A stretch of 64,000 nucleotides of DNA from Candidatus Gastranaerophilales bacterium. GTDB lineage: Bacteria; Cyanobacteriota; Vampirovibrionia; Gastranaerophilales; Gastranaerophilaceae. Each line of letters begins with the position of its first letter. Within the stretch, counting starts at the first letter, position 1. The notes under the pieces were generated by a model. It worked only from the letters and a program-made list of their open reading frames with translations. It was not told where the DNA came from and searched no databases. Positions 3,307 through 60,573 of the stretch are shown piece after piece. The stretch covers positions 8,431 through 72,430 of the forward strand of contig CAJULR010000022.1 in the NCBI GenBank assembly GCA_910587375.1. Reading direction: 5' to 3'. The translations under genes and the position numbers were made by a program.

Positions 3307-3588
3307 TCATTTGTTCAAATCCAGGACACAGCGCACACCAAAGGCGTTGGTAGAAGAATTGCTATTAACCGTGAAACTGCCACTATTCAAGTTGCCTCTG
3401 TAATAACTAGTGCCGCTGTTAAGCGTGCCTGACCATACGTTGTTCGGGTAGCAGTTGTTATTGGTCGCGCCCGTGCAGCCGCTGGTACGGTTCTGGCACT
3501 GCAAGGCGCCGTAACCTGAATTGTTGTCGCAGAGCTGCAAACAAAACGTGGTGCAGTGGGACAACAGGAGTGGAACCAACTTTGTCAT
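3307..3588 (-). CDS. small Cys-rich protein with DUF1566/Lcl-C-terminal-like ending (...AFGVRCVLD); possible gene fragment
   Basis: 93-codon ORF with a hydrophobic N-terminus, 8 Cys and Asn/Ser/Gly-rich content. The C-terminal xFGVRCV motif resembles DUF1566-type domains. An in-frame stop lies 12 codons upstream, inside repeat DNA. Confidence 0.4.
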   Translation of the reverse strand: MTKLVPLLLSHCTTFCLQLCDNNSGYGALQCQNRTSGCTGATNNNCYPNNVWSGTLNSGTSYYRGNLNSGSFTVNSNSSTNAFGVRCVLDLNK

Positions 3589-3656
3589 CCTGAATACAAG
3601 CGCGTCATCCTGAACACAAATGCGTCATCCTGAACTTGTTTCAGGATCTCAAGATT
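3584..3656 (+). repeat. three 20-nt-spaced gtcatcctgaa half-sites, the last completing hairpin repeat H1 (gtcatcctgaacttgtttcaggatctcaagatt)
   Basis: Half-sites start at 3584, 3604 and 3624. The H1 stem is atcctgaa/ttcaggat. The same 33-mer family recurs at 4116, 7066(-), 7820(-), 8194 and 26084. Confidence 0.85.
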
Positions 3657-3915
3657 CAGTTGGTTTCTCAACCTTGCGACTCTGCCTTAATGTTTTAATC
3701 TCGCACTTTAATCTAAACTTTAAAGTGCAATAGCTAAGTTTAATTTCAGCCTAAGCCATCGGAGGCAAAACCCCATACGGTGGCAACATTTGACGATTTG
3801 AAATCCCATTCTGCTAAGGCCCGTAAGCCTCAACACTCCAAGGGCGATTTCCTTATTTAATATTACTTCTCTTTTTGCCCCATGGCAAATTTGTTAAAAA
3901 AGGAGTGTGAAAAAA

Positions 3916-3942
3916 GTAGGTTGGGCATACTTGCCCAACATC
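3916..3942 (+). repeat. hairpin repeat H2a (gtaggttgggcatacttgcccaacatc)
   Basis: Stem gttgggca/tgcccaac. A near-identical copy lies at 26004-26030 inside the 5' end of the 906-aa ORF. Confidence 0.8.
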
Positions 3943-4042
3943 AACTAATGGGCGTAAAAAAAGGAGCGCGAAGGTTACATAACGCGCCCCGAAAAGTTGT
4001 TTATCGTAAAAATTTGTTTTGTATGAAAGTTTAGATTTGTCG

Positions 4043-4200
4043 CGTCATTGCGAGGGACCAACGGGAGTGCGGCAATCTAGAAACCAGTGTCGAAAAAGCC
4101 AATCAACATGCAGTCGTCATCCTGAACTTGTTTCAGGATCTCAAGATTAAGTAAAATTTTCCTGGATTGCTTCGTCGCTGTCGCAACGCTCGCAATGACG
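4043..4200. repeat. composite palindromic repeat: two inverted cgtcattgcgag...gcaatc(c/t)ag copies flanking an H1 hairpin (4116-4148)
   Basis: Copy A (4043-4085, +) and copy B (4161-4200, -) are mutually inverted. A third copy lies at 8289-8334 (-). Confidence 0.8.
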
Positions 4201-4240
4201 TGTCCGCTCCGTAAGGCAGGGGCTAAAAGGCCCCAAAACC

Positions 4241-7204
4241 CTACATAGACGTGCTCTTATATTCAATTATGACAACCCCGTCGCCGCCATAGCCGCCAAG
4301 TCCGCCCACCCCGTCAACAACAGCGCCGCCTCCGCCGCCTCCGCCAAAGACTCCGGGCTTTCCTTGCGCTCCGCTTGCTGCTGCGTTACAATTTCCCGCA
4401 GCGCTCATGTTTCCGCCACAGCCGCCAAGTGGTGGCCCCGCAACTTTCCCGTCTTTGGATTTTATAAACGTCGCAAAGGTGTTGTCGATGTTTTGATAGA
4501 TATATTCCATATATCCGCCGATTCCGCCGCCGATTTCAGAGCCCGCATGCCCGTGCACGGCTGCTCCTTCGTCTGCAGCATAGTTATTATAGTTGTCAGG
4601 AAGCTTTTGAACCCCGCCATGGTCGTCTTTTGTAAGGCCGCTGTTGCCTTTAAGGCCGCCTTTTGCCTTTAAAAGCGTGCCAAAAGAGCTTTCGCCGCCC
4701 GCGCCGTCATAGGCTGTGCCGTTTGCCGCGGTTCCTGTTTTGCCGCCTTTGCCGATTGTGATTGGGATTTCGCTTCCCGGTTTTAAGTTATATAAAGTTG
4801 TAGATTTATATTCGCCGCTGGTGCCGCCCCCGCCGTTGCTGCCGCCATATTCAATGTAAATATAGCCGCTTGCACCTGCAGCGCCCATGCCAAAGGTGTC
4901 CCCTGTGGTTTGTGCGCCTGCTCCGCCGCCTCCGCCTGCGCCGTAGCTGTCGATTGCTGGTGTGGAGCCGTTTTTAACGCTGTTTCCGCCAGTTCCCCCT
5001 GAAACGCTTTCTGCTTTCATATTTTGGATGTTTCCGCCTGCGCCGCCAAAACCTTTGTTTGTAATTGCAGAGGCCAAAATGCCTTCGCCGCCTCCATATC
5101 CGCCTGTAAAGGTTTTGTTTAGCCAGTTTCCGCTTGCGTTTGCAACGTTATCCTGCATAATAAACACGCGTGTTCCAAGCCTTGCGCCGCCAGCAGAGGC
5201 CACATTCGGGTCTGAAGAGTATTGGCCTGCGTTTCCGCCAAGGGCTGTTGCAATGATTGTGCCTGTGGAAGAGCCGCGGCGGATGTAGGTTGCGCCGCCG
5301 TTGTTTCCGTTTTTGCCTGCGCTCACTTGGTTTGCGCCGCCTGCGCCCACTTCAAAATATAGGGTTTCGCCTGGGGTCACGGTGATTTCACCAATGGTCA
5401 TTTGGCCTGCGCCCCCGCCGCCCCCGCCATTTGCCGGCATATTATATGTGCATTTCAAGGCATTTGTCCTTGCCCCCGACTGCCCGTAACAAAGACGTAG
5501 CGCACCAGGCATGCCGTTGTTGGCCGCATTATTTGCATCTTTAGTGTTTTGTGTTCCATCGCCACCGTTACAATAATTGGCGCTTTTCCATATTGTAGTA
5601 GTACCTATAGTACCGGCAGTACTACTATTGCCAGATTTGCCTCCGTACCCTCCGCCTCCACCAACACCTGCAGATGTAGTACCTGTATTTCCGGTCAAAC
5701 CATTACCTATGCCTACAGTTGTATTTAAATATGTCCCACCTCCACCTCCAGCTCCAGCTCCACCTTTTCCACTTCCACCTGCTCCACCCCCTCCGCCATA
5801 TCCGCCCCCACCACCTCCGCCTCCTCCTGCACCGTAATATGTGCTTGAACTATAATGATAGCTTCCACCCCCACCCCCACCCCCACCAATTTGAAATATT
5901 ATAGTACCAGAGGTTCCTGAAGCAGTAGAAATTGATGTTGGGCCTCCGCCACCCCCACCCCCACCTGTTGCAAGACTTCCACTACCATTTGAATATGCAT
6001 TTCTTGCGCCCCCACCTCCGCCTCCACCCCATATTCCACCTCTTCCGCCACTTCCTGCATAACTGCTTGATATAGCATTACTACCTGTTCCCCCATACGA
6101 GATGGCAGTTCCAGTTCCATTTGAACCAGATGTTGCGTTTCCAGTAGAAGATTGCAGTCCTTGGCCACCATTACCTCCATATGTGCCTCCATTTCCACCG
6201 CTGTAGTTGCCACTCCAAGCTCCACCACCTCCACCTCCAGCACTATATCCACCTTCATTGCCACTGTGTTTACCTATTGCGCCCCCACCTCCACCTCCAG
6301 CAACTTTTATATAAACAGTTGATACAGATGAAGTTACTGATGCATTTGCTATATATCCACCTGAGCCTCCACCGCCACCATATGTATCGTACCCTGCACC
6401 ACCCCCACCCCCGCCGCCGCAGGCGGTGACTTTGAGTTCAGCTCCGGCTGTGGCTCCGGGGGTATATTTAACGCTTTCATCTGCCGTTAAGGTCCACTGT
6501 GTCACGCCTGAGGACTTACAGGCGCTGTCCAATTCGGGGACAATCCAGCTTGCATTGTTAGGAATTGTAAAGCTGTGTTCACCCGCGCTTAAAAAATCTT
6601 TACATGTTTCTGCAGCAGTTACCGAGGGAATATCTCCATAAGCTGTACCCACCCCAACGCCGCCGCTGGCGCCGCCTCCGCCGCCACCGACCATATAAAC
6701 GCGAAGTTTTGTAACGCCTTCCGGGACTTTCCAGCTTTGAACAGAGCTTGGGTTTTTAAATTCTAAAACGCCGTGGAATGCGTCCCCGCCTGCGCCTCCG
6801 CCGCCGAGCATGGTCACTTTGGCAGAGTTTACGTCAACCGGAACAAGAAAGGTTCCATCTTCGTTAAAAATCTGAATAACCGCGTCTTTATCGTATTGTG
6901 CGGCGCCAACGCCCGAAACATTGATTGTGGCTTCGTCCATGCGCTTTGTCATGACAGGCGCCAAGGCCGCCATGAGTAACGACGCCACCAATAGAGCCAT
7001 AAGCATTTCCACCAACGAAAACGCAGCATGGGATGATGTTGGGTTAAAACCCAACCTACGGGTTTGAGATTCTGAAACAAGTTCAGAATGACAAAGTCGG
7101 TCCCCGTTCGTTGGCCGAACAGTGTCCATTGGTTGAACGGCCGCAGTGCGGTTTAGAGCTGCAAAACTGCAGCTGTTTTTGAACAACTTTTTAAACATAA
7201 ACAA
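4241..7204 (-). CDS. giant glycine-rich protein with type IV prepilin-like N-terminal cleavage/methylation segment
   Basis: HAA|FSLVEMLMALLVASLLMAALAPVMTK matches the N_methyl-type motif (F-S-L-V-E plus a hydrophobic helix). The rest consists of stacked Gly-rich modules with runs of up to 9 Gly. Modules are bounded by beta-like strands (SWKVPEGVTKLRVYMVGGGGGG ... GYIYIEYGG ... GVVIIEYK). The true start is uncertain: TTG 7204, ATG 7198, or an internal TTG near 7050. Confidence 0.85.
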   Translation of the reverse strand: MFMFKKLFKNSCSFAALNRTAAVQPMDTVRPTNGDRLCHSELVSESQTRRLGFNPTSSHAAFSLVEMLMALLVASLLMAALAPVMTKRMDEATINVSGVGAAQYDKDAVIQIFNEDGTFLVPVDVNSAKVTMLGGGGAGGDAFHGVLEFKNPSSVQSWKVPEGVTKLRVYMVGGGGGGASGGVGVGTAYGDIPSVTAAETCKDFLSAGEHSFTIPNNASWIVPELDSACKSSGVTQWTLTADESVKYTPGATAGAELKVTACGGGGGGGAGYDTYGGGGGSGGYIANASVTSSVSTVYIKVAGGGGGGAIGKHSGNEGGYSAGGGGGGAWSGNYSGGNGGTYGGNGGQGLQSSTGNATSGSNGTGTAISYGGTGSNAISSSYAGSGGRGGIWGGGGGGGARNAYSNGSGSLATGGGGGGGGPTSISTASGTSGTIIFQIGGGGGGGGSYHYSSSTYYGAGGGGGGGGGYGGGGGAGGSGKGGAGAGGGGGTYLNTTVGIGNGLTGNTGTTSAGVGGGGGYGGKSGNSSTAGTIGTTTIWKSANYCNGGDGTQNTKDANNAANNGMPGALRLCYGQSGARTNALKCTYNMPANGGGGGGAGQMTIGEITVTPGETLYFEVGAGGANQVSAGKNGNNGGATYIRRGSSTGTIIATALGGNAGQYSSDPNVASAGGARLGTRVFIMQDNVANASGNWLNKTFTGGYGGGEGILASAITNKGFGGAGGNIQNMKAESVSGGTGGNSVKNGSTPAIDSYGAGGGGGAGAQTTGDTFGMGAAGASGYIYIEYGGSNGGGGTSGEYKSTTLYNLKPGSEIPITIGKGGKTGTAANGTAYDGAGGESSFGTLLKAKGGLKGNSGLTKDDHGGVQKLPDNYNNYAADEGAAVHGHAGSEIGGGIGGYMEYIYQNIDNTFATFIKSKDGKVAGPPLGGCGGNMSAAGNCNAAASGAQGKPGVFGGGGGGGAVVDGVGGLGGYGGDGVVIIEYKSTSM
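7038..7092 (-). repeat. hairpin repeats H2b (gtaggttgggttttaacccaac) and H1 variant (gtcattctgaacttgtttcagaatctc) inside the 5' part of the 987-aa ORF
   Basis: Reverse complement of 7038-7059 and of 7066-7092. The order and spacing relative to the FSLVEM codons match those in the 906-aa gene. Confidence 0.8.
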
Positions 7205-7398
7205 TTTCTCACTTTTTTAAAGTATTAACCGAAAATTTAATCTTTAGAACAACTTTTTAGTAAAATTTTCTACTACACAATATATTATAATAATGTTTAC
7301 ATTAAAAATCAATAAAAACTTGTTGTGTAGGTTATGAACACATGGCCTATTGCATAATAAGCTGTTGTTTGTATTGGGTTCAAGAAAAGTGGAATAAT

Positions 7399-7737
7399 AT
7401 GGACGAGAAAGAAATCAGGAAATTATTGGGCGAAAACATCAGAAGAATCCGCTGGAGTAAGAATATGACGCAGGAAGCGTTTTCAGAAAAAATCGGGATT
7501 GAGCCTTCAAGCCTTTCAAACATTGAAAACGGAAAGAGCCTGCCTTCAACACAAACAATTCTTAACATTCAGCAACAATTTGAAGTTTCTCCCAATGAAA
7601 TTTTTGATTTTGACATTGACTATGTTAAAAGCGCGCAAAACCTTGAAGATGAGATTTTTAGCACTGTTCGGGCCTTTGATGTAGACAGGAAGCGGGTTTT
7701 ATACAAAATTGTGAAGGCAATTGAAGTTACGGCGTAA
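7399..7737 (+). CDS. XRE-family helix-turn-helix transcriptional regulator
   Basis: MDEKEIRKLLGENIRRIRWSKNMTQEAFSEKIGIEPSSLSNIENGK is a classic Cro/CI-type HTH. An internal ATG at 7399 is preferred over the track start at 7342. The gene is divergent from the 987-aa gene. Confidence 0.8.
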   Translation: MDEKEIRKLLGENIRRIRWSKNMTQEAFSEKIGIEPSSLSNIENGKSLPSTQTILNIQQQFEVSPNEIFDFDIDYVKSAQNLEDEIFSTVRAFDVDRKRVLYKIVKAIEVTA

Positions 7738-7819
7738 GGGATTTAAGTTTTAAAGAGTTGTTTTTTATATCGTAGGTTGCATTTTAAGGAGTTGATAGAG
7801 CTGGATGAATTTCAAGTTC

Positions 7820-7852
7820 AATCTTGAGATCCTGAATCAAGTTCAGGATGAC
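7820..7852 (-). repeat. hairpin repeat H1, inverted orientation
   Basis: aatcttgagatcctgaatcaagttcaggatgac is the reverse complement of the H1 consensus with one loop change. Confidence 0.8.
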
Positions 7853-7890
7853 GGCTGCACATTGAATGGCCGGATTTACTGTACCAAGTA

Positions 7891-8088
7891 TTAATTTACG
7901 GTGCGGAAAAGCTCTTCCAGGGCGTTATTCAGGCTGTTTATTTTATGCTCGATTTCAATAAGTGCCTGGCCGTAAGGCAGAGTGTCATTGGTTTTTTGCT
8001 CTGTGTTCAGGAGGGCCATTTTAAGAACGTGGGTTGAGTTTCTGATTTCGAGGAGTTTTTCTGTGATTTCGAGGTGTTTTTGGAACAT
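7891..8088 (-). CDS. hypothetical 65-aa helical protein (weak call)
   Basis: Track ORF only. The sequence is heptad-like and rich in Leu/Glu. It lies between inverted H1 copies. No homology recognised. Confidence 0.3.
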   Translation of the reverse strand: MFQKHLEITEKLLEIRNSTHVLKMALLNTEQKTNDTLPYGQALIEIEHKINSLNNALEELFRTVN

Positions 8089-8193
8089 TTGATGATTCCT
8101 TTTTGTTTTACGTTTTTATTTTTGCACAGTTTTTTTGAAATGTATGTAAGCAAAAAGATTACAAGGATGAAGGCGGAGGTTTGGATTGGCCGT

Positions 8194-8334
8194 GTCATCC
8201 TGAACTTGTTTCAGGATCTCGAGATTTTTGCGCTATATCAACAGACCCTGAAATAAATTCAGGGTGACAAAGTCTTTTCAGCGGCGTTGGTTTCTGGATT
8301 GCCGCGGTACGCTGTCGCTTCCCTCGCAATGACG
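8194..8334. repeat. repeat cluster: H1 (8194-8226,+), H1 variant (8245-8268,-), cgtcattgcgag-type copy C (8289-8334,-)
   Basis: Direct sequence matches to the copies at 3624, 4116 and 4043-4200. The overlapping track ORFs (8074-8256, 8195-8551) are built from these repeats. Confidence 0.8.
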
Positions 8335-8381
8335 TAACCATTGAATGATTATAGTGCGAAACCTTGCGATGATGGTGAAGG

Positions 8382-20505: not shown

Positions 20506-21309
20506 ATGCAAGCGGAGAATTTTACCACAGATACCGTTGAAGAAGTCAATATGTGGCTTAAGGAATATAAAGAAACCGGGGACGAAGCGACAAAGAAAAA
20601 GCTCCGGGATTTAATTGTGCTTGCCTATATGCCGCTTGTAAAAAAGGTTGCGCGCGGTTTTGCAAGGCGCTCCACTGACCCTGTTGAAGATATTACACAA
20701 GTTGGCTCTATGGGCCTCATTAAGGCAATTGATTTGTTTAAATCAGATATAAGTTCAAACTTCAAAACCTATGCCACATATTTAATTACAGGGGAAATTA
20801 GGCACTATTTAAGGGATAAAACTACAATTATAAGGGCGCCAAGGGAAATTAAAGAATTGTCCTATCGTGTACACAAGTTAACGCTTGAATTAACAGAAAG
20901 GCTTGGCTGCCAGCCAACGGACGAACAAATTGCCCAGGCTTTGCAAATGCCCGCCAAAAAAATTGAAGAAGTAATAGAGCTTGAGCGCAGAACAACAACC
21001 GTTTCAATTGATCAAATTATAGGTTCGGAAGAAAACGGCCAGACGCCTTTAATGGATAAAATTGCGGATGAAAAAGATAAAAATCTTATAAACGCTTTTG
21101 AAAATAAAATGATTTTAGAGGACGCTATTAAAAAGCTTTCCTTGGAAGACAGACAAATTATCACCATGAATTTCTTTGAAGGATTAAATCAAAGGGAAAT
21201 TTCAGAACGCTTGAACATTTCTCAAATGCAGGTTTCAAGGAAATTGAAAAAATCTTTAAACAAACTTTTTGAACTCATCACCAAAAAAGGCGTAACACAT
21301 TATGATTGA
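20506..21309 (+). CDS. group-3 sigma-70 family factor (SigF/SigB-like)
   Basis: Region 2 (FKTYATYLITGEIRHYLRD) and region 4.2 (REISERLNISQMQVSRKLKKSL) are present. Size and motifs are typical of the SigB/F/G clade. Confidence 0.9.
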   Translation: MQAENFTTDTVEEVNMWLKEYKETGDEATKKKLRDLIVLAYMPLVKKVARGFARRSTDPVEDITQVGSMGLIKAIDLFKSDISSNFKTYATYLITGEIRHYLRDKTTIIRAPREIKELSYRVHKLTLELTERLGCQPTDEQIAQALQMPAKKIEEVIELERRTTTVSIDQIIGSEENGQTPLMDKIADEKDKNLINAFENKMILEDAIKKLSLEDRQIITMNFFEGLNQREISERLNISQMQVSRKLKKSLNKLFELITKKGVTHYD

Positions 21310-22291
21310 TTTAAATACGGTTTTAGCAATTTTTGTATTCATAACAGGTGCTTGTATTGGAAGTTTCTTAAATGTTGTGGCGCTTCGCGGGCTTTCTGGC
21401 GAAAGCATTGTTTTTCCGCCTTCAAAATGTCCAAAATGCAACAATAAATTAAATTGGTATACAAATATCCCGATTATTTCATATTGTTTTTTAAGGGGGA
21501 AATGCCAGTTTTGTAAAGAGCACATTTCGCTTCAATATCCTGTTGTTGAATTTTTGAATGCGCTTCTTTACCTTTTTTGCTTTTTATCCTTTGGCTGCAC
21601 GGCAAAAACGGTGTTTTTATGTATTTTAATATCGCTTTTTCTTGTAATTGCAATAACCGATTTCAAAGAAAGCGTTGTAATTGACGCTCATACATATGTT
21701 ATTATTGCTCTTGGGCTTATATATAATATTGTTCCTTTTGGTTGCCCTTTTGGCGAAGCAGGAATTGTTCAAAGTGTCCTCGGCATTCTTCTTGGGGCGA
21801 TTTTCTTTGAAGCTATAGCGCGAATTGGCTATCTTTTTGCCGGAACCCGTGCTTTTGGCGAAGGGGACACGTTAATTGCAATGGGTATTGGCGCATTTTT
21901 TGGTTGGAAAACCCTTCTTGTAATCATATTTATGAGCATTATTCTTCAAGCCGTTTTAACGCTTCCAATGCTTTTCCACAAGGCACTTAAAGAAAAACAG
22001 TATAAAAGTGCCGCTGCATACATTGTGCTTGTTTTTTGCGTTGGTTTAGTGTGGGCTTTCAGAGAATTTAATATATATAATATCTTTCCCCTGATTTTAA
22101 TTTTGCTTCTTATGGTCTGTGCTATGCTTCTTTGGGCGCTTTGCACGATTTTAGCTGATATGAAAAATAAAAAGGAAACAAACAATTTTCTATATCTCCC
22201 TTTTGGCCCGGCGCTTGTTCTTGCAGGCCTAATCACAGTGTTTTTCCAAAGCTCAATCATTGCATTTATAAAAAACATTTTCTTTTTGTAA
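21302..22291 (+). CDS. pilD: prepilin peptidase (A24 family, PilD-like)
   Basis: N-terminal CPKC...CQFC zinc motif. Two catalytic Asp contexts (ITDFKES, GEGDTLIAMGIG). Polytopic. The ATG overlaps the sigma factor stop (ATGATTGA). Confidence 0.9.
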   Translation: MIDLNTVLAIFVFITGACIGSFLNVVALRGLSGESIVFPPSKCPKCNNKLNWYTNIPIISYCFLRGKCQFCKEHISLQYPVVEFLNALLYLFCFLSFGCTAKTVFLCILISLFLVIAITDFKESVVIDAHTYVIIALGLIYNIVPFGCPFGEAGIVQSVLGILLGAIFFEAIARIGYLFAGTRAFGEGDTLIAMGIGAFFGWKTLLVIIFMSIILQAVLTLPMLFHKALKEKQYKSAAAYIVLVFCVGLVWAFREFNIYNIFPLILILLLMVCAMLLWALCTILADMKNKKETNNFLYLPFGPALVLAGLITVFFQSSIIAFIKNIFFL

Positions 22292-25255: not shown

Positions 25256-25465
25256 TCAAAAGAAATATTTCATATCCACCCCGAAAAATTCAGCAAGTTT
25301 GTATAAAGTTTTAATGTTTATTGAGTGTTTACCGTTTTCAATGTTTGAAAGGTGGTCCCTTGAAATTTCAACTTCAAAGGCGACTGCCTCTTGAGAGAGT
25401 TCTTTTTCAAGCCTCAAATGCTTTAACCGTCTGCCTATTTCGTTCTGCAATGCCTTAATGCCCAT
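25256..25465 (-). CDS. XRE-family HTH transcriptional regulator (69 aa)
   Basis: IGRRLKHLRLEKELSQEAVAFEVEISRDHLSNIENGK. It shares the LSNIENGK block with the regulator at 7399. Confidence 0.8.
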   Translation of the reverse strand: MGIKALQNEIGRRLKHLRLEKELSQEAVAFEVEISRDHLSNIENGKHSINIKTLYKLAEFFGVDMKYFF

Positions 25466-25470
25466 ATAAT

Positions 25471-25635
25471 TTATTCTTCTCTATCAAGCTCTTGAAGAGC
25501 ATATTCACAGCACTGCTGGACTAAATTATTTAAAGAAACACCCTTATCCTGTGCAACAATTTGCAGCTCCTGCACCAGCTTTGCGGGCAGTCTGAAAGTT
25601 TTATTTATCATTTCAGGTTTTTCAACTTTGAACAT
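25471..25635 (-). CDS. ribbon-helix-helix (CopG/Arc-like) small protein, 54 aa
   Basis: Hand-translated ORF below the track cutoff: MFKVEKPEMINKTFRLPAKLVQELQIVAQDKGVSLNNLVQQCCEYALQELDREE. The pattern is a beta-strand (TFRLP) followed by two helices. It is packed 3-5 nt from both neighbouring genes. Confidence 0.5.
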   Translation of the reverse strand: MFKVEKPEMINKTFRLPAKLVQELQIVAQDKGVSLNNLVQQCCEYALQELDREE

Positions 25636-25638
25636 CGT

Positions 25639-25854
25639 CTAATCAAATTTTAATCCTATTTTTGCATTGGCAATCTGTGCTATCAGGTTTGCTTCCTCAA
25701 ATCTCAAACTTTTACGGCGCACCCTTGCATATAAAGATTGCCTTGAATATTTTTTGCCGGTTTTTTGTGTCAATAATTCAGCAATTTGTGCATAAGTTAA
25801 ACCGGTTTGTGCCTGAATATGTTTGATAAATTGATTTGCGTCCATACCCTGCAT
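25639..25854 (-). CDS. small HTH DNA-binding protein (71 aa)
   Basis: TGLTYAQIAELLTQKTGKKYSRQSLYARV is HTH-like. It is the first gene of the three-gene minus-strand regulator array. Confidence 0.6.
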   Translation of the reverse strand: MQGMDANQFIKHIQAQTGLTYAQIAELLTQKTGKKYSRQSLYARVRRKSLRFEEANLIAQIANAKIGLKFD

Positions 25855-25866
25855 TCTAAAATCTTA

Positions 25867-25894
25867 TTGACTTATGTACAAATATATATACAAT
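25867..25894 (+). promoter_or_regulatory. candidate sigma-70-type promoter TTGACT-16 nt-TACAAT for the 906-aa gene
   Basis: TTGACT at 25867-25872 and TACAAT at 25889-25894. A second candidate is acGACA-17-TATAAT at 25918-25946. Confidence 0.4.
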
Positions 25895-25904
25895 ATTGTA
25901 TATA
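25885..25904. promoter_or_regulatory. perfect 20-bp palindrome tatatacaat|attgtatata, candidate operator
   Basis: Verified base by base. It overlaps the candidate -10 and lies between the divergent regulator array and the 906-aa gene. Confidence 0.5.
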
Positions 25905-25984
25905 GTTATATACATATACGACACAACTAGGTTAACTGGATATAATTTTTGATTGTTGATTAATTAAAAAAAAGGAATTATAAA

Positions 25985-28705
25985 ATGCAAAACAAGCAAA
26001 TCTGTAAGTTGGGCATACTTGCCCAACATCATTCAATGACAGCTGCTCAATCAACGAAAAAAGCAATCAACCAACGTGCAACCGTCACCCTGAACTTGAT
26101 TCAGGGTCTCAACCAACGTGCACCCCGTAGGTTGGGTTTTAACCCAACACCACCCCATGCTGCTTTCTCTCTTGTGGAAATGCTCATGGCCCTTCTTGTG
26201 GCCTCCCTGCTGCTTGCGGCCCTTGCCCCCGTTATGACAAAGAAAATGTCCGAAAATATAAACGTTAACGGCATTTCAGGCGGCGGCCATGCCCCTGCTG
26301 TCTTTAAATGTTGGGACTACGACAGCCCGGAACTCCAGCCTGCGGCGGACGGCAGCAACTATAAAGTCCTCCCCGAAGCCTATCCTGTGGATGACGCCTG
26401 GAATATTAATTTCATCCTTGCTTCAGGCGGCGGCGGAGGCGCCGGTGCCACAATTCCAAACGAAACAAGCCACAGTTTTGACGGCACGGGCGAATTAAAA
26501 ATCGAGCCTGAAATGGATGAAATAGACATTGTTTCAATGATTGGAGGCGGCGCAGGGGGCGGAGGAGGCGCCGCAGTATTTAGCTCTGCCACTTGCACAG
26601 GCGGCCCGTCAGAGGCCAAATGCGAGTGTATGGGCGCAACATACGACTCTGTAAATAAAGTTTGCGTTTCAAATAATTTAGGTTCAAAAAACTTAACAAA
26701 TGCAAAAACAGCATGCCAAAATGTTACACCTCTTAACAAATGGAGTTTGCCAACAACAAGCCAGCTTTCAAACTGGAAGACTAATACGCTGTATTCAACC
26801 CTTGGAATTATAAGCGGGCAGACAGTTTGGAGCCAAACAAGCGGCCAAGGAGCATGCTCTAGTAGCACTTCGACCTATAATTGCTATTACAATGGTGCAT
26901 ATAGAACAGGCTATGCAAGTGAAACAGAATGTTGCAGTGGGAGTAGTTATGGTAGCAAGAAGGGAGCATATGAGCCCAACAATAATTCTTGTGGTGTGTA
27001 TTGCGCTGCAAGAAATGTAACATCTTCCCCTGGAAGTGGCTGGTTTAAAGGCGATGGCCAAACTGCAACAAAATGCGGAGGAACGGGAGGATGTAATTGG
27101 GGTAGTACGGATTATTTTAAATGTGGAACCTGTCCTGATTCTGACACCTGTGCTTCCACTGTTACAACTTCTTGTTCTTCATATTATACAAACTACTACT
27201 TCTACCAACTCACAGGTTCGACCTGGTCCCAAAGTTATGCAACAGATAACACAGGCTCCAGACAGACTTATTGCGTATATAATGACTCCGCAAATGTCAC
27301 AGGTGAAAGCTTCTACTCCCTATCAGGCGGCGGAGGAGGTGGTGCGCCCGCAATTTCAGACAATAATTTCGATTCAAACATTTTAAATACATTTAGAAAA
27401 AGAGTTAAGGAAAACGCCGGCGGCTACCTTGAATTTCAGCGCGGCACAGGCGGAAACGGCGGCGACGCAAGTGCTTCTAAAAACCAAAAAGCAGGAAACG
27501 GCGCAGACGGCGGAGATACCTGTATTATCGTGAAAAACGCGGCACGCGCGTATAAATATAAACTTTGCGTTTCGGGCGGAAACGGCGGCGGGGGCGCAAA
27601 CGCCACCAAAGCAGATTCTTCAACCACAGGCTGGGGCTATGCAGGAGGCGAAAAGAATAACGCAAATGCTTGCTATGTCGTGGATTACACGGCAAATTCC
27701 GCAGGCGTGAAGACAGATTTTGACTGTGCATTAAAAGGAAAAGCCGGAGGGGCAGGCGGCGCCTCAACAAGCAACCCGACAGCGGGCGGAAAAGGCGCTG
27801 CAAGCGTATTAAACAGCACACAAGTTGGCGGAACTGCAGTAAAAGACGGGGTTAGCGCCTCAACTTCAAACTATGGCGCAGGCGGAGGCGGCGGCTCTGC
27901 CTCGAAAACAGGCTATGGCTCTTCAGCAACTCTTGCTTTTGGCAAGGGCGGAAACGGCGCGCCGGGGTATATCAAAATAAACTATAAGAAAAAATTCGCA
28001 GCAGCAGGCGGCGGAGGCGGAGGCGGAGGCTATGTTGCCCATATAAATAATATTACGGTCGGAAAAACCGCAACCTGTGAAATCAAAGTGGGATACGGCG
28101 GGGCAGGAGGCGCTGCCGGGATAAAAGGCTATGACGGCGGAGATTCAAGCGTCACTTGCTCAAATGCGCCAAATGTTACCTACAGAATTACGGGCGGAAA
28201 AGGCGGAGAATTAGGCAGCACAACAGCCGGCGGCCTTGGCGGAGAGGCAGGCACCTATGATGACACAGGGAACATCTTCACAAGGCTTTTCAGCCAGGGA
28301 AATTTCAGACAGGCTGCGGGCCTTGCCGGAAAACAAGGCGGGGCGGGCGATTCCGCAAACTTTAAGGCAAACGTTCGAAGCGCAGGCGGCAGAGGCGGCA
28401 CGGGCGGAACCGGCGAAAAGGGCAAATGCGGCGGTATTTATACAGAAAGCGGCGTTTGCGCCACAGTGCAGGCGGATGAGAATAACGACATAACCGAACC
28501 AAACCAGGACGCCTTGAACGGCGAGGGTTTTGGGGCAGGAGAAATTACAGCGCCCACAAAGGATGGCATAGTTGAGGCCACGCCAAAATACGGAAAAGCA
28601 GGCGCTGGCGGGGGCGGAGGGGCCTGGTATGTAGGCAAAAACCCTGGCCGCGGGGGTGCCGGCCAAGGCGGATATGTCTGCATTTATTGGGACAAGCTGG
28701 AGTAG
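25985..28705 (+). CDS. giant glycine-rich protein with type IV prepilin-like N-terminal segment and a central Cys-rich DUF1566-like insert
   Basis: HAA|FSLVEMLMALLVASLLLAALAPVMTK is nearly identical to the 987-aa protein. Gly-rich modules end in GYIKINYKK and GYVCIYWDK. The central part holds about 18 Cys and a KWSLPTTSQLSNW motif. The true start is uncertain (ATG 25985 with an AAGGA site upstream, or TTG 26132). Confidence 0.85.
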   Translation: MQNKQICKLGILAQHHSMTAAQSTKKAINQRATVTLNLIQGLNQRAPRRLGFNPTPPHAAFSLVEMLMALLVASLLLAALAPVMTKKMSENINVNGISGGGHAPAVFKCWDYDSPELQPAADGSNYKVLPEAYPVDDAWNINFILASGGGGGAGATIPNETSHSFDGTGELKIEPEMDEIDIVSMIGGGAGGGGGAAVFSSATCTGGPSEAKCECMGATYDSVNKVCVSNNLGSKNLTNAKTACQNVTPLNKWSLPTTSQLSNWKTNTLYSTLGIISGQTVWSQTSGQGACSSSTSTYNCYYNGAYRTGYASETECCSGSSYGSKKGAYEPNNNSCGVYCAARNVTSSPGSGWFKGDGQTATKCGGTGGCNWGSTDYFKCGTCPDSDTCASTVTTSCSSYYTNYYFYQLTGSTWSQSYATDNTGSRQTYCVYNDSANVTGESFYSLSGGGGGGAPAISDNNFDSNILNTFRKRVKENAGGYLEFQRGTGGNGGDASASKNQKAGNGADGGDTCIIVKNAARAYKYKLCVSGGNGGGGANATKADSSTTGWGYAGGEKNNANACYVVDYTANSAGVKTDFDCALKGKAGGAGGASTSNPTAGGKGAASVLNSTQVGGTAVKDGVSASTSNYGAGGGGGSASKTGYGSSATLAFGKGGNGAPGYIKINYKKKFAAAGGGGGGGGYVAHINNITVGKTATCEIKVGYGGAGGAAGIKGYDGGDSSVTCSNAPNVTYRITGGKGGELGSTTAGGLGGEAGTYDDTGNIFTRLFSQGNFRQAAGLAGKQGGAGDSANFKANVRSAGGRGGTGGTGEKGKCGGIYTESGVCATVQADENNDITEPNQDALNGEGFGAGEITAPTKDGIVEATPKYGKAGAGGGGGAWYVGKNPGRGGAGQGGYVCIYWDKLE
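26004..26148 (+). repeat. hairpin repeats H2a (26004-26030), H1 variant (26084-26110) and H2b (26127-26148) inside the annotated 5' end of the 906-aa ORF
   Basis: Direct matches to intergenic copies at 3916, 3624/4116/8194 and 45205. Confidence 0.85.
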
Positions 28706-34099: not shown

Positions 34100-36901
34100 A
34101 TGAAAGTTAACGGTTCATTTAAAGGTATAAATCCTTCTGATAATAATTCTGCAAAAAAGCGCATAACAAAAGCCGCAATCCTTACAGGAGTTGTGGTTGG
34201 TGGCGCTGCATTGTATGGCAGGGGGAAGAAAAGCCCTGCTTTTCAAAAATTTGCAAGCACTTTAGCCAGTGATATTTTAACTCCCCTGAAACAAAAGGGG
34301 GTGCCTTTTAATGAAAAAATTGCAAATATTGGTGCAAATTTAAAACAATCCATTGGCGTTTTCACATCAAAAAGAAACAGATATGACGATATTATCGATA
34401 TCAGGCCGGGAAGGCAGCTTCCAGCGCTTCCTGAAAGGTCTTCTGCAAGTTATGTTGATAGCGCTTTAAGAAATCTGATTTATAAAGATAACGGGCAAAT
34501 TATTTTTGACATTCCCATAATTCCGGACGCAAACATTCCGCAGCAGAGCGGAAAAATTCTCGCACTTTCTGCCCCCGGAAACAGGCTTGCACTTCCTGAA
34601 AAAGCAGGAGGCGCGGCAGGCAATGTTGTGGAAAAAATACATTATAAGACTGTGCTGCCTGCGACTCCGCGTGTTATTGAGCTGCCGGGTGAAATTGCAG
34701 AAACCGCAGCAACCGTTGGCGAAGGGGTTACAGGAGCTTCAGAAAAAGCTGGTGGAAAATTTGCTGCAGCGGCAGGTGCAAGTGCAATTTTAGCAGGCGG
34801 TGTTGCGGCCTCAAAATTAAATAATGATGAAGAACCCAAGGTTCCTGCAAAAGACGTTAAACCCAAGGGAGCCAAAGAAACGAAAGGGCCTGCAAAAACA
34901 GCCGGGGCGCCAAAATCTGACAAAGTTCAGACGGTGACATTAAACGGTAAAGAATTTGGCGGCATTTTTGAAGACGGTATTGCATACGATGAAGAATGTG
35001 AACCCTTGACAGGAAGCCTTGTTGCAGGTTTTAAATCCGGCAAGACCGTTGTGCTTCAATATGAAGATGGTGTTTTGCAAAAATCTCTTATCTTTAAAGG
35101 TAAAGACGATGAAGCACCAAAAGAAATTAAAACTTATAAAAACGGAAAAATACATCAAAAATTCGAAGGCATAACTTTTGAAGATGGTGTATATGTTGCA
35201 AAAACAACTTCAACTTACCGTGCAAATGATTCTATGCTTCAAAGCAGGGAAGTTAAAGGCAAAAAGACCGTCCGCACAAAACACTTTAAAAACAGTTTGG
35301 ATGAAAACGGTAAAATAAACGGTAAACCCATTCCTGTAATGACTACAAGCGTTAGTCACTCAAATAATGGTACTGAAGTAAGAAAGTTCTATGCAATTAC
35401 AGGAGATGACACAGAAAGGCTTGCAAGAATAAGTGAAGCAAGGCCGGACGGCACAAAAGAAATTAAGCTTGTGGGCAATGGCGGAAATCCTGTAAGCACG
35501 ATGATTTTAAATAATGACAGACAAATTAATTGGTATATAACAGACCCTGACAGCCCGAATGATTCATACATATACATTAATAACGGCAAGGTGGCCGATG
35601 TAACAACAAGTATGAAATTTAATGACAAAGAACAGCTTATGGAATATGTCGGCTATACATATGCCGGGTCTGAAACTACGCCCCTAAAGCCTCTAGAAGA
35701 AGGGGAAACAAAATATAATGTACCTCATAAAACAACTACGCGTTATAAATCAAAAGAAGGTGAAATGTTTGTTATAACAACAGTTGTTAACAATGGACAT
35801 GAATACGTTACAAAGATTGAAGGATTTGAAAACGAAAAAGATACAGAACCTAAGAGCACCAGAATATATTCTGAAAATGATAAGATTGTGGCGGATTATT
35901 CTGAACATACATCCCCAATAACAGGTGAATTGCGAACCAAGCTGTCTATATGCAAGGGCGGAAAAGCGATGTCTTTCCCAACGCTTGAAAAGCTTGAATG
36001 TGCCGACGATTCTATTGAAGCCTACAGAAAGGCAGACGGTTCTGTTGTTGAAATTGAAAAAGACGAAGATGGTTATATAGTGTCAATTGCAACCTATGCT
36101 AATGAAGAAATTGACTATCCTGAATGTATTACAATTTTTGACCATGGCATGCCTGTAAAAGACGCAATATTTGATGTTGACGGCAATGTAGTTTTTAAAT
36201 CAAAATACAGCATAAAACCCGTTCCAAAGCAAGAAGTGGTGCAAGAAGCGCCGAAAATATTGACAAAAGAAGAGTCTATAAGACAGCCCGGCGGTTTTAA
36301 ATTTGACAATGATACGTATAATTCAATAACGTTCTATGAAAACATGTGGACCGGAAAATACTATCAGCCTGCAGACGTTAAGCGAATTGAAAGAGATAAA
36401 GAAGACGCGTATCGCATAACTCTTCTAAATCCGTATTCATATAACACGCCTGCATATAATATGCTTTTGGACCAAAATAATACAATTCAGCTTCTTAGCG
36501 TATATTCAAGCGGTAATACGGTTGAACTATTCTTGGATGAAGAAGGGCGTCTTGATGTTGATGATTTAAAATATGCCATTAAAGAAGGCGAACTTAAACA
36601 TGTCGGGCCTTTCAAGAAAAACATCGAAAGATATCAAATGGAAAAGGGCGAAGTTATTGAATTTGTAAAACGTGAAGACGGAACTGTTGCCTCTATTGCT
36701 TATTATGAAGATGAAACAAGTGATACTCCTGTTTGCAGAACCTTTGTAAAAGGTGGTGTTCCAACAACAGATGTTGTATATAATTTAGAAGATGGAAGCT
36801 ATGTTTATAATGAATCTTCACTAAGTGGTTTAGATATGCTTGAAAACCCGATTGAAGATATTTATATAAACAACATATTTGGCGGCCCGGAGAGAAAATA
36901 A
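34100..36901 (+). CDS. large orphan membrane-anchored repeat protein (933 aa)
   Basis: Two hydrophobic segments (AAILTGVVVGGAALYG; AAAAGASAILAGGVAAS) and a Lys/Pro-rich linker. These are followed by MORN/YwqK-like turns (YEDGVLQKSLIF, YKNGKIHQKF) and two related C-terminal modules (VEIEKDEDGYIVSIATYANEEIDYPEC... / VIEFVKREDGTVASIAYYEDETSDTPVC...). Confidence 0.7.
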   Translation: MKVNGSFKGINPSDNNSAKKRITKAAILTGVVVGGAALYGRGKKSPAFQKFASTLASDILTPLKQKGVPFNEKIANIGANLKQSIGVFTSKRNRYDDIIDIRPGRQLPALPERSSASYVDSALRNLIYKDNGQIIFDIPIIPDANIPQQSGKILALSAPGNRLALPEKAGGAAGNVVEKIHYKTVLPATPRVIELPGEIAETAATVGEGVTGASEKAGGKFAAAAGASAILAGGVAASKLNNDEEPKVPAKDVKPKGAKETKGPAKTAGAPKSDKVQTVTLNGKEFGGIFEDGIAYDEECEPLTGSLVAGFKSGKTVVLQYEDGVLQKSLIFKGKDDEAPKEIKTYKNGKIHQKFEGITFEDGVYVAKTTSTYRANDSMLQSREVKGKKTVRTKHFKNSLDENGKINGKPIPVMTTSVSHSNNGTEVRKFYAITGDDTERLARISEARPDGTKEIKLVGNGGNPVSTMILNNDRQINWYITDPDSPNDSYIYINNGKVADVTTSMKFNDKEQLMEYVGYTYAGSETTPLKPLEEGETKYNVPHKTTTRYKSKEGEMFVITTVVNNGHEYVTKIEGFENEKDTEPKSTRIYSENDKIVADYSEHTSPITGELRTKLSICKGGKAMSFPTLEKLECADDSIEAYRKADGSVVEIEKDEDGYIVSIATYANEEIDYPECITIFDHGMPVKDAIFDVDGNVVFKSKYSIKPVPKQEVVQEAPKILTKEESIRQPGGFKFDNDTYNSITFYENMWTGKYYQPADVKRIERDKEDAYRITLLNPYSYNTPAYNMLLDQNNTIQLLSVYSSGNTVELFLDEEGRLDVDDLKYAIKEGELKHVGPFKKNIERYQMEKGEVIEFVKREDGTVASIAYYEDETSDTPVCRTFVKGGVPTTDVVYNLEDGSYVYNESSLSGLDMLENPIEDIYINNIFGGPERK

Positions 36902-45204: not shown

Positions 45205-45226
45205 GTAGGTTGGGTTTTAACCCAAC
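45205..45226 (+). repeat. hairpin repeat H2b (gtaggttgggttttaacccaac), intergenic copy
   Basis: Identical to 26127-26148 and to the reverse complement of 7038-7059. It sits between convergent genes. Confidence 0.85.
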
Positions 45227-45272
45227 ACCATTAAACTTGCAACAAAACATCCTGTGATGAAATGCCTGCAAA

Positions 45273-57749: not shown

Positions 57750-59771
57750 ATGACTATTAAAAAAATCGTATTAACAGCAACGGCTGTAGCAACCATGTTT
57801 GCATTTACAGTGCCCGTGAGCTTTGCAGCATGTTCAACAGGGTCAGCATGCTCTATAGATTCTCTAAATCAGGTAAATCCGAGCACTGCAACATGTTCAA
57901 AATGCAAATCTTCAATGGATTCTTGCAAATGTAAAAAAAAGAGTTTTTTCAGAAACTATTTCAAAAGAAACAAATGCAACCCATGCGAAACGGGAGCAGC
58001 AGCACCGTGCGACCCTTGCAAAGTGAAAAAAAATGATTGCGACCCTTGCAAGGTGAAAGAAAAATGTGACCCATGCAACAAGCCAAAGTGCGATAAATGC
58101 TCTACAGGCGTAGGCTCAAGCTGTCTTAACCAAAGAACACACTCAAATATGCAAGTTTATGCATACCCGGGTGCAATTTATTCCCCTGCAAACGTAGCAG
58201 TTACAGGTGAAGCTACAAACAATTCAGTAGTTTCAGACCAAACAATCGCAGAAATTCCTATTACCCCCGGCGTTCGCCTTTCTGATGATTGTGTAACAGG
58301 TGCTGCAGCGCCGATTATCGACCCTGCATTACTTCCGCCTAAAGAAGACTGCTGCCCTGGAGCTGATGTACAATCTCCAAATTCTATGCAGGCAATTTAT
58401 AAAGAAATGGAAAAATGTGACACTTGTGCAACTTCTAAGAAAGACTGCGGTTGTGCAACAGGCGGCGCAAGCCACTTAGGCAGCCAAAGCTATCCTGACG
58501 TTCCTGATAGATACTGGGCTTCTGCTGATATCAACCGTTTAACAGACCAATGTATCGTTGTAGGGTATCCTGATGACTTGTTTAAACCTAATAAAAACGT
58601 AACAAGAGCCGAAATGGCAGCTATGGTTGTGAAAGGTTTCAACCTTGAATCTACCCAAATGACTGAAGCAGGAAACTTTGCCGATGTTCCTTACAGCCAC
58701 TGGGCTCATGATTTCATTAACAAAGGCGTAAGCGCTGATATGCTTGCAGGTCACTCTTCAAATAAATTCTTACCGAATAACCACATTACAAGAGCGGAAG
58801 CTTTAACAATTATGTCTAAAGGCTTGAAATGTCCTATGGACAACTGTAAAGCCGAAGAAATCCTTGCTAAGTTCAGAGATGGTGCCCAAGTTCCAAACTG
58901 GGCAAGAGAATGTGTTGCAAAAGCAATTGACGTTGGTGCTCTTAAAGATTCAAAATCATCTGATTTAATCAGACCGAATGAAAATGCTACAAGGGCAGAA
59001 ATTGCAACTATGCTTCAAAACACAAGAATTGCAGGCGGATATGACAAAAATGCTCCTGAAATGACCGCTATGGGCCCTGCTAAGACAACTTATGTTGAAA
59101 AGGAAACCCCTGTTTGCATTCCTACTCTTGAACTTACAATGAAGGATCAGGTTAATGCTAAAAATGCTAACGTTGGCGAACAATTTGCGGCAGAAACCAC
59201 TCATGAAATTACAATTAACGGTGTAACATATCCTTGTGGAAGCCGTGTAAACGGTAAAATCACCGAAGTTATAAGACCGTCTAAATGCAACCCGGGCGCA
59301 ATCAAACTTTCATTCACTGAAATCGTTGGCTGCGACGGCTGCAAACAAATTCTTCCAAAACAAGTGTTAACAGCTAAAGTTGAAAAATGTAAAGATGTTA
59401 ACCCTGTTGTAAGATTAATCCAAATGCCATTCACATTTGTTGGGTCTACTTTAGGCCTTGCAGGACGTACTGTTGGTGGTGCTGCGATTGGTTTAAGCAA
59501 CGCTGTTGAAGGTTTGTTTGACCAAGTTGGTACAGGTACCGGCGAAATCCTTTCAGGACAATTTAAAGCCGGTGGCAGAAGCTATATTGACGGTATCAAG
59601 ACAACAGTTAAAGCTCCTGTGGACATCGTAAGAACTGCAGCTGTAGGTACAGCAGGTTTATTCAACAACACTGTTGATGAAGTAGCTTATGTAATTGACG
59701 GCGCAGGCAACAGAATCACAAGAGTGAACCCGAAAGATAAAATGACCATCGCCTTTGGCAACAACAAATAG
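57750..59771 (+). CDS. SLH-domain envelope protein with Cys-rich N-terminal region
   Basis: Signal peptide (..VPVSFA|A). Tandem C(D/N)PC repeats. Three S-layer-homology units (YPDVPDRYWAS...TRAEMA; FADVPYSHWAH...TRAEAL; VPNWAREC...TRAEIA). GGAGGA site upstream. Confidence 0.85.
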   Translation: MTIKKIVLTATAVATMFAFTVPVSFAACSTGSACSIDSLNQVNPSTATCSKCKSSMDSCKCKKKSFFRNYFKRNKCNPCETGAAAPCDPCKVKKNDCDPCKVKEKCDPCNKPKCDKCSTGVGSSCLNQRTHSNMQVYAYPGAIYSPANVAVTGEATNNSVVSDQTIAEIPITPGVRLSDDCVTGAAAPIIDPALLPPKEDCCPGADVQSPNSMQAIYKEMEKCDTCATSKKDCGCATGGASHLGSQSYPDVPDRYWASADINRLTDQCIVVGYPDDLFKPNKNVTRAEMAAMVVKGFNLESTQMTEAGNFADVPYSHWAHDFINKGVSADMLAGHSSNKFLPNNHITRAEALTIMSKGLKCPMDNCKAEEILAKFRDGAQVPNWARECVAKAIDVGALKDSKSSDLIRPNENATRAEIATMLQNTRIAGGYDKNAPEMTAMGPAKTTYVEKETPVCIPTLELTMKDQVNAKNANVGEQFAAETTHEITINGVTYPCGSRVNGKITEVIRPSKCNPGAIKLSFTEIVGCDGCKQILPKQVLTAKVEKCKDVNPVVRLIQMPFTFVGSTLGLAGRTVGGAAIGLSNAVEGLFDQVGTGTGEILSGQFKAGGRSYIDGIKTTVKAPVDIVRTAAVGTAGLFNNTVDEVAYVIDGAGNRITRVNPKDKMTIAFGNNK

Positions 59772-59862: not shown

Positions 59863-59920
59863 AAAAAGTTTGAATTGAAAAGCTTGAAACCCGGGTTAAA
59901 AAGTTTATTTGATATGGGAT

Positions 59921-60495: not shown

Positions 60496-60573
60496 ATCCT
60501 TTATTATAACATCCAATTTGAAAAATGCAACGCATTTCAAGTTTGAATTGTTTTTAATTAAAGGAGGTGAAAA

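Follow-up and report, generated by a model that had tools for sequence, protein, structure and literature searches.

Giant glycine-rich proteins with a prepilin-type N-terminus form a multigene family in gut Gastranaerophilales

Modular pilins, in which a carrier is proposed to be joined to an effector module, were catalogued in a survey of more than 1,200 proteins with 264 architectures, some of them of around 860 residues, and their bulky domains are predicted to bind ligands (Raynaud et al. 2021, PMC8179133). According to the account given in PMC4371748, the PilA1-6 pilins of Haloferax volcanii (Esquivel et al. 2013) combine a near-invariant H-domain with differing C-termini, and their genes are scattered, apart from the biosynthesis genes, with subsets expressed under different conditions. 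On the phage side, 'polyglycine-rich' or 'brush' domains have been proposed as anti-receptors (PMC13243795). Here we analyze the gene of a 906-residue protein in a 64-kb stretch of DNA from a Candidatus Gastranaerophilales bacterium (contig CAJULR010000022.1, positions 8,431 to 72,430; hereafter the window). It codes for a conserved prepilin-type N-terminus followed by a large body with glycine-rich modules. Gastranaerophilales, which are related to cyanobacteria, are common in the gut but uncultured.

The comparisons described below point to a large, previously undescribed multigene family of gut Gastranaerophilales (Melainabacteria). Searching the literature on PF21722 and on glycine-rich pilins in Melainabacteria, we found no prior account of the family or of an N_methyl plus Gly_rich_2 architecture. 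As the best explanation, in which our confidence is evenly balanced, we propose that these proteins are pilin-anchored adhesins, processed by PilD, which stand on or beside type IV filaments and make up an individually regulated repertoire.

The anchor and the family that carries it

The window contains two giant genes, which share the anchor given in the third line:

25985..28705 (stop codon included), plus strand: gene of the 906-residue prepilin-type glycine-rich protein, from the list of open reading frames (ORFs), with the same product in public contigs
4241..7204, minus strand: gene of the 987-residue paralogue, with 30% Gly, four Gly_rich_2 stretches and the same anchor
26165..26248, plus strand: predicted mature N-terminus FSLVEMLMALLVASLLLAALAPVMTKKM, an alpha1N-type hydrophobic helix with F+1, E+5 and P+22, the family anchor

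The first ORF lies exactly where the initial annotation had placed it, and the motifs quoted for it (INFILASGGGGGAGA, GAPGYIKINYKK and GGYVCIYWDKLE) are all present in the protein. An identical 906-residue product is called in 27 public contigs, and the window matches the metagenome-assembled genomes (MAGs) GCA_948502535.1, GCA_949097115.1 and others; the named homologues belong to 'Candidatus Gastranaerophilales', with database entries that read 'hypothetical protein'. The second giant gene, which had been reported at some 19 kb on the opposite strand, is indeed there, at a measured distance of 18.8 kb, and codes for 987 residues from a TTG start or 985 from an ATG at 7198. In the whole window, a degenerate DNA pattern that codes for FSLVEMLMA matches exactly twice, once in each giant gene, with a chance expectation of 0.01. 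By BLASTP, the alignment of both proteins is confined to residues 42-120 (58% identity, E 1e-23), in agreement with the shared prepilin-type N-terminus that had been proposed, and none was obtained in the bodies. The other large unannotated ORFs of the window, of 933 and 801 residues, are unrelated to the giant family.

Conservation at the protein level begins at F61 (FSLVEMLMALLVASLL..APVMTK). From this residue on, 26 of 87 nucleotides but just 2 of the first 27 residues are different between the giant genes, and within the anchor, from F+1 to K/R+27, 15 codons have changed synonymously and 2 non-synonymously; therefore, the anchor is under protein-level selection and is not conserved as repeat DNA. 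Regarding the database homologues, conservation starts exactly at F+1 in 115 out of 120 (FSLVEMLMALLVASLL[LM]AALAPVMTK[KR]), and the same peptide is found in more than 100 of them with differing codons, which extends to the whole family the common pilin-type anchor suggested from two genes.

By sequence criteria, the conserved segment is a class III, or prepilin-type, signal. The accepted features of these signals are G, A or S at -1, before a hydrophobic domain of around 20 residues, F or another hydrophobic residue at +1, and E or D at +5 (PMC4371748). The 906-residue protein agrees with them at -1, +1, +5 and in the hydrophobic stretch: its predicted peptidase site is A60|F61, ahead of the hydrophobic domain, and its hallmark sequence FSLVEMLMALLVASLLLAALAPV presents F+1, E+5, a hydrophobic run of around 22 residues and a Pro at +22. 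Of 117 genomic copies, 98 have A at -1 and the other 19 have G, and E+5 is present in all 115 motif-bearing homologues. P22 is typical of type IVa pilins and of GspG. The N_methyl, TIGR02532, ComGC, HpsB and GspG models all match residues 59-95, just under their cutoffs; the PF07963 cutoff is reached by the homologues P0083 (27.0), P0057 (22.0) and P0039 (21.2), and a pilin-motif model matches 36 of 47 members at E<0.01.

Upstream of F61, the sequence is of a different nature. The first 58 or so codons of both giant ORFs consist largely of palindromes resembling repetitive extragenic palindromes (REPs), which are also found in intergenic DNA. In the 906-residue gene they are arranged as follows:

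25985..26164, plus strand: leader-coding region, 60 codons from ATG 25985 or 43 from ATG 26036, ending in H-A-A at the predicted cleavage site
26008-26027, plus strand: REP-like hairpin C
26087-26107, plus strand: REP-like hairpin A
26126-26149, plus strand: REP-like hairpin B

Palindrome A (GTCAYYCTGAACTTGWTTCAGRRTCTCA; core CTGAACTTGWTTCAG) has seven copies in the window, palindrome B (CGTAGGTTGGGTTTTAACCCAACA; GTTGGGTTTTAACCCAAC) has three, one of them intergenic at 45209, and palindrome C (GTTGGGCA..TGCCCAAC) lies in the 906 leader region. We also noted a fourth REP-like type, palindrome D (GTCATTGCGAG...), which brings the window to at least four families, and a high density of these palindromes in the intergenic DNA flanking the 987-residue gene and in both leader regions (3500-4240, 7800-8350, 26008-26149, 45205-45230).

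One could argue that the shared N-terminus is merely repeat-derived DNA and no translated functional segment. The RRLGFNPT peptide is indeed palindrome B in translation, identical between the giant genes at 24 of 24 nucleotides and present as well in the intergenic copy, and a 10-nucleotide indel places palindrome A in a different reading frame in each gene. Against this stand the codon pattern from F61 onwards and the recurrence of the peptide under other codons, which refute the explanation for the anchor. We give it almost no credit: it holds only for the RRLGFNPT part. In the N-terminal segment that the initial annotation had read as one conserved unit, the part from F61 on is conserved as protein, while RRLGFNPT is a REP-like palindrome.

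The leaders of the family are unrelated in sequence and, as called, run from 7 to more than 100 residues (115 of 120 homologues). In the 117 copies, the frame upstream of F+1 is open for a median of 42 codons, in comparison with 13 and 9 in the other two frames, and every locus has an in-frame ATG upstream, with a median leader of 23 residues from the nearest one. In the 906-residue gene, translation may start at ATG 25985, which has an AAGGA Shine-Dalgarno sequence 8 nucleotides before it (spaced as in the EF-G gene) and lies just downstream of a promoter-like site, or at ATG 26036; with either start, palindromes A and B would be translated within a leader whose removal is predicted. REP cores are concentrated in the 180 nucleotides upstream of F+1, where their density is 30-70 times that of the rest of 0.88 Mb of family loci, and 19 of 115 family genes have at least one core in that interval. 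This enrichment suggests that insertion of REP elements is tolerated in the disposable leader, which would serve them as a landing zone.

To determine the extent of the family, we scanned one genome per species with a degenerate DNA pattern coding for the anchor. At least 113 matches were found, all of them in around 11 Gastranaerophilales/'Vampirovibrio'/Melainabacteria gut MAGs; in the 80 matches listed, the count for each genome comes to at least 7-11. Further paralogues, as the initial annotation had anticipated, do exist, and the family is far larger than two. The mature protein has 724-981 residues and 16-31% Gly in 50 of the 52 ORFs that are complete within the fetched loci, and their C-terminal end is a 'GG.G..G + four hydrophobic + W/Y' strand, with the recurring subtypes GYVCIYWDKLE (906 type, 22-30 Cys), GVVIIEYKSTSI (987 type), GKIILEWWE, GMVVIEWSN and GRIILQLWE. 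An exhaustive single-sequence HMMER search of 1.84 billion representatives of clusters at 50% identity gave 161 matches at E<=1e-3 and 19 at E<=1e-30, and returned this family only. Judged by sequence, the family is diverse yet confined to a narrow lineage. Distant members have an FTLAELLV-type anchor and are sometimes found in tandem. Such is the case of a distant lineage (L121:3385-8409) with an 821- and an 802-residue gene (Lcl_C plus Gly_rich_2, FTLAELLV-type anchor), which lie downstream of a divergent regulator of the MerR type and not of the XRE type.

Glycine-rich modules and a cysteine-rich insert

Behind the anchor, the body of the 906-residue protein (20% Gly) is divided as follows, with model confidence given as the predicted local distance difference test (pLDDT):

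26267..26599, plus strand: D1, residues 95-205, a beta-rich module with two poly-Gly runs (AlphaFold2 pLDDT 85-95; hhalign)
26600..27304, plus strand: Cys-rich insert, residues 206-440, divergent Lcl_C/DUF1566-like and weakly C-type-lectin-like, absent from the 987 type
26855..27154, plus strand: hypervariable, indel-rich Cys loops inside the insert, residues 291-390
27305..27988, plus strand: D2, residues 441-668, glycine-rich, ending in GYIKINYKK (pLDDT around 90-97; weak Gly_rich_2 match)
27989..28702, plus strand: D3, residues 669-906, Gly_rich_2 (PF21722), ending in GGYVCIYWDKLE (Pfam; phage glycine-rich fold matches)

Scanned alone, residues 661-906 match Gly_rich_2 with 28.3 bits (cutoff 24.3), and the full-length protein scores 22.6 bits, just under that cutoff. 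The 987-residue paralogue reaches 67.1 bits over four stretches, and a match is found in 36 of 47 orthologues. We also built an AlphaFold2 model of residues 51-906 from 47 homologues. Its mean pLDDT is 81, with values above 90 in the glycine-rich parts, although DSSP calls the Gly runs coil; this combination of high confidence and coil fits a predicted polyglycine-type structure, and is indirect evidence on the polyglycine-II helices that make up the 'fingers' of brush domains. A Foldseek search with the model retrieved no cellular or classical fold. The best match in the PDB was the tail tip of mycobacteriophage Bxb1 (9d93_Qb; probability 0.97, E 0.03), and the BFVD viral library gave 14 matches at E<1e-3 with probabilities of 0.97-1.0, nearly all of them to glycine-rich Caudovirales proteins, mycobacteriophage minor tail proteins, tail fibres and giant-virus collagen-like proteins. 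Besides, PHROG tail families match the body. A profile of the family alignment run against PDB sequences returned only low-complexity noise.

Since the body resembles, by fold and by profile, only phage tail-fibre, tail-tip and minor tail proteins, the genes could be domesticated or remnant prophage tail-fibre genes bearing no relation to pili. We find this very improbable. Housekeeping genes surround the family genes, and phage structural genes are absent there; the prepilin N-terminus does not vary and is subject to purifying selection; the copies, at least 7-11 in each genome among the matches listed, are scattered and have their own regulators; and the search of 1.84 billion representatives retrieves nothing outside this family.

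The initial annotation had considered the bodies diverged. This is true at the BLAST level. In order to look past it, we grouped the family bodies by their C-terminal signature and compared them profile to profile with hhalign. Within the 906-residue body, D2 and D3 match at 93.5% probability and D1 and D2 at 75%. Between types, D1 matches mature residues 27-121 of the 987 type (85%), D2 matches residues 532-725 (96.5%) and D3 matches residues 724-919 (92.4%), while the Cys-rich insert has no counterpart there (0.1%). On these profile comparisons, the 906 and 987 bodies are homologous and collinear except for the insert, past the point of BLAST recognition. The family architecture runs from an N-proximal glycine-rich module through a middle part that varies to a pair of Gly_rich_2 modules at the C-terminus. 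The bodies are, according to Pfam and hhalign, divergent versions of one architecture, and an arbitrary, interchangeable cargo, as the idea had been worded, is not supported.

Regarding the insert, 18 of the 28 Cys of the protein fall within residues 204-430 approximately, as expected for the central Cys-rich segment described initially, and this cysteine content would fit an extracytoplasmic location. The 906-residue protein itself has no match to Lcl_C/DUF1566 (PF07603). Six homologues give sub-threshold Lcl_C scores of around 26 bits (cutoff 34.9) at the equivalent position, which maps to residues 234-416, with 'KWSLPTTSQLSNW' aligned to 'NWRLPTKDELSKF'. A separate AlphaFold2 model of the insert was confident over its residues 1-110 and 180-230, and around 20 of its 26 top Foldseek matches were C-type lectin-like, none of them individually significant. 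The models thus offer a lectin-like fold as a coherent lead and not as an assignment. Within the insert, residues 291-390 share 10-33% identity among orthologues, with 25-54% gaps, and have a pLDDT below 50.

Two ways of generating variation were considered. Diversification of the hypervariable loops by a diversity-generating retroelement is rejected locally: in the window, 26700-27300 is not repeated elsewhere, so that a template repeat is missing, and no reverse transcriptase was found, with no YxDD in any ORF; the neighbour annotations of the family loci contain no RVT family. Phase variation by DNA tandem repeats is not supported, given that we found only short GGN-type repeats scoring at most 42, with no slippage-prone tract.

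The base composition of both giant genes also differs from that of their surroundings, with a GC content of 0.49-0.53 compared to around 0.35-0.39 (window positions 4001-6000 and 26001-28000). The excess is found mainly at codon position 2 (0.56-0.60), as a result of the Gly/Ala/Ser/Thr amino-acid composition; at the third position the rise in GC is modest, with GGC preferred among the Gly codons. Given this distribution, a horizontal origin is not claimed from the high GC.

Peptidase, regulators and the route to the surface

The genes and sites around the giant genes that bear on their processing and control are these:

21302..22291, plus strand: prepilin peptidase/N-methyltransferase of 329 residues, A24_N_bact plus Peptidase_A24
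25256..25854, minus strand: divergent operon of three genes for small DNA-binding proteins
25639-25854, minus strand: 71-residue winged-helix-turn-helix-like protein
25471-25635, minus strand: 54-residue ribbon-helix-helix/HicB-like protein
25256-25465, minus strand: 69-residue HTH_3/XRE protein, last gene of the operon
7342..7737, plus strand: 131-residue HTH_3/XRE regulator, divergent from the 987-residue paralogue
25867-25894, plus strand: promoter-like site TTGACT-16-TACAAT (consensus match; putative function)
25873-25916: 44-bp AT-rich palindrome (TATGTACAAATATATATACAAT/ATTGTATATAGTTATATACATA), overlapping the -10 of the promoter-like site

The peptidase carries both Asp motifs and CxxC..CxxC, is of the bifunctional type and lies 3.7 kb upstream of the 906-residue gene. 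Its linkage to the 906-type orthologue is kept in at least three genomes (loci L047, L041 and L094). The gene overlaps by 8 nucleotides the 3' end of a sigma-70-family gene (20506-21309), which suggests that both are co-transcribed. As for regulation, an XRE-type gene is found within 1.5 kb upstream at 60 of the 90 family loci with enough sequence, around 12 times the background, every one of them divergent, with a median distance of 262 nucleotides to the F+1 codon. From its position, the 44-bp palindrome is a candidate operator of the 906-residue gene.

The ORFs, the family, the way in which the anchor is conserved, the domain homologies, the peptidase gene and the pairing with regulators are all shown by the sequences and profiles. 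Putting these elements together, we infer a course of events that leads from cleavage to filament loading, surface exposure, ligand binding and switching. A variable, REP-tolerating leader would be made and the protein inserted by Sec. The linked prepilin peptidase would cut after Ala60 and N-methylate the Phe, and the cleaved mature N-terminus would then read (N-methyl-)FSLVEMLMALLVASLLLAALAPVMTK. The alpha1N helix (F1, E5, P22) would retain the protein in the cytoplasmic membrane. Because of E5, P22 and the near-invariance of this helix, we expect an interaction with the type IV filament machinery, which would pick up the protein, most likely at the filament tip or as a rare subunit. The body, of around 820 residues, would be presented outward, with its three polyglycine 'brush' modules and the hypervariable, disulfide-rich, lectin-like insert, and would probably bind glycan or lipid surfaces. 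Finally, the divergent XRE-type regulators could give each paralogue its own control, resulting in a switched repertoire of binding specificities.

Several observations weigh against this course of events. No other type IV filament or pilus assembly gene is present in the window, and no PilB/GspE-type Walker-A signature in the roughly 0.9 Mb of fetched family loci; pilA/B/C/T/D have been described in one Gastranaerophilus genome, with partial sets in others (PMC5877343). The 906-residue protein falls short of the cutoffs of PF07963 N_methyl (19.4 bits vs 21.2) and TIGR02532 (15.3 vs 16.3). In the AlphaFold2 model, the N-terminal helix (model residues 13-29, ORF residues 63-79) is followed by a linker with a pLDDT below 50 and then by a glycine-rich beta module; there is no alpha1C packed on a beta-sheet, and the canonical pilin head is absent. 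The best Foldseek match of the insert has an E-value of 1.2, so none is significant. Finally, a body that has to pass an outer-membrane secretin together with a filament would be large at about 85 kDa and at least four domains.

Some of these points favor the main rival explanation, namely that the proteins are membrane-anchored envelope proteins outside any filament, in a periplasmic or surface layer comparable to the archaeal bindosome, and that the signal serves only Sec targeting, processing by PilD and anchoring. Both the missing pilin head and the lack of linked assembly genes in the window and in the family loci would be expected from it. There are precedents as well: non-pilin substrates of PibD (PMC3047682) and membrane-associated pilins that can aid adhesion without pili (PMC4371748). 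The invariant E+5 and P+22 and the near-identical alpha1N are, however, typical of filament packing and machinery recognition, and a plain anchor does not need them. Moreover, an inner-membrane anchor in a diderm would keep the receptor-binding-like and lectin-like domains in the periplasm, away from external ligands. In view of this balance, we judge a filament-free anchor somewhat unlikely.

The opposite possibility is a novel, thick type IV-like filament built from the giant proteins as its major subunits, in which an alpha1N core would carry the giant glycine-rich domains on its outside, with the paralogues as alternatives in the manner of Haloferax PilA1-6. The paralogues do share an unvarying anchor, as the Haloferax pilins share their H-domain, and no small pilin with this anchor was found, given that 50 of the 52 complete ORFs with the motif exceed 720 residues. 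Nevertheless, no type IV filament with subunits of around 85 kDa is known, steric crowding around the alpha1N core would be severe, and the alpha1C and head required for subunit packing are missing from the AlphaFold2 model. We consider this explanation improbable.

A bolder version can be put forward, although only tentatively and as an unlikely case: a minimal, headless, invariant alpha1N 'plug' that loads any of around ten XRE-gated giant adhesins, made of phage-captured polyglycine domains of the receptor-binding type, onto a filament or assembly platform would be a new use of the type IV pilin system.

Some other genes of the window were also recorded. A 673-residue protein with an SLH domain (57750-59771, plus strand) is presumably the kind of tether from outer membrane to peptidoglycan expected in a cyanobacteria-related diderm; a tether of this kind matters for the way in which a pilin-anchored protein would get to the surface. 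The 933-residue ORF (34100-36901, plus strand) has no Pfam hit on record, is Lys/Glu-rich and, by eye, internally repetitive, and is conserved beside BipA and RimM in related MAGs. A gene pair on the minus strand, around 59920-60520, codes for 84 residues and for a 114-residue Gp49-family protein (PF05973), and resembles a toxin-antitoxin module.

Comparison with known systems

Around 1.5% of a genome of about 2 Mb given to pilin-anchored proteins of 800-1000 residues, with domains of the phage receptor-binding type, would point to a major system for the recognition of host, mucus or microbes. The invariant 27-residue anchor, for its part, is a specific tag for the family and its lineage in metagenomes and metaproteomes. 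The family would tie the 'brush' domains of phage tail fibres to a cellular function and, should the capture of phage domains be confirmed, the bacterium would have adopted from phages a module that recognises hosts and put it to use in recognising surfaces itself, in the form of a programmable or variable adhesin repertoire.

The closest described systems are the modular pilins. Like Streptococcus sanguinis PilB and PilC (PMC8179133), the 906-residue protein has a class III signal, or IPR012902-type motif, followed by bulky non-pilus domains, and it agrees with the modular-pilin definition in joining an N_methyl-type motif to Gly_rich_2. In contrast to them, its model has no complete pilin module (alpha1C plus beta-sheet head), the part that lets a modular pilin polymerise into the filament, and its 'brush' domains go unmentioned in the survey of PMC8179133. 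The family also differs in its at least 7-11 copies per genome (among the matches listed), its invariant anchor, a -1 residue that is mostly Ala, its long, variable leaders and its divergent regulator. The 906-residue protein may therefore work like a modular pilin, and we do not file it as a proven member because the model shows no pilin head. With this family, the modular-pilin idea would come to include an anchor that lacks a head, and multigene repertoires that have regulators of their own.

Large minor pilins and pseudopilins such as CofB, TcpB, GspK and ComZ are thought to be tip-located and to bind (PMC8179133); unlike the giant family, they keep the pilin fold and are encoded in single copy in a pilus or type II secretion system operon. 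In the archaeal bindosome, with the class III signals of the Sulfolobus sugar-binding proteins (PMC3047682), large non-pilin proteins also depend on a prepilin-type signal and a peptidase; these are archaeal solute-binding proteins, which are not known to have a conserved E+5 and are not a glycine-rich family.

The body has its counterpart in the Gly_rich_2 'brush' domains of phages (Bxb1 9d93 chain Qb, tail fibres and minor tail proteins), with which it has in common the Pfam family, the fold and the end strand, rich in G and then hydrophobic. Phages place this domain at the distal end of trimeric tail proteins, whereas the giant family strings two or three copies in a chromosomal protein behind a pilin signal, at an identity of around 20%. 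Finally, the family is a bacterial counterpart to the conserved H-domain phenomenon of Haloferax. As PMC4371748 presents them, PilA1-6 are small archaeal pilins processed by PibD, each of them able to be the major pilin, while the giant family is bacterial, glycine-rich and modular, with proteins of 800-1000 residues.

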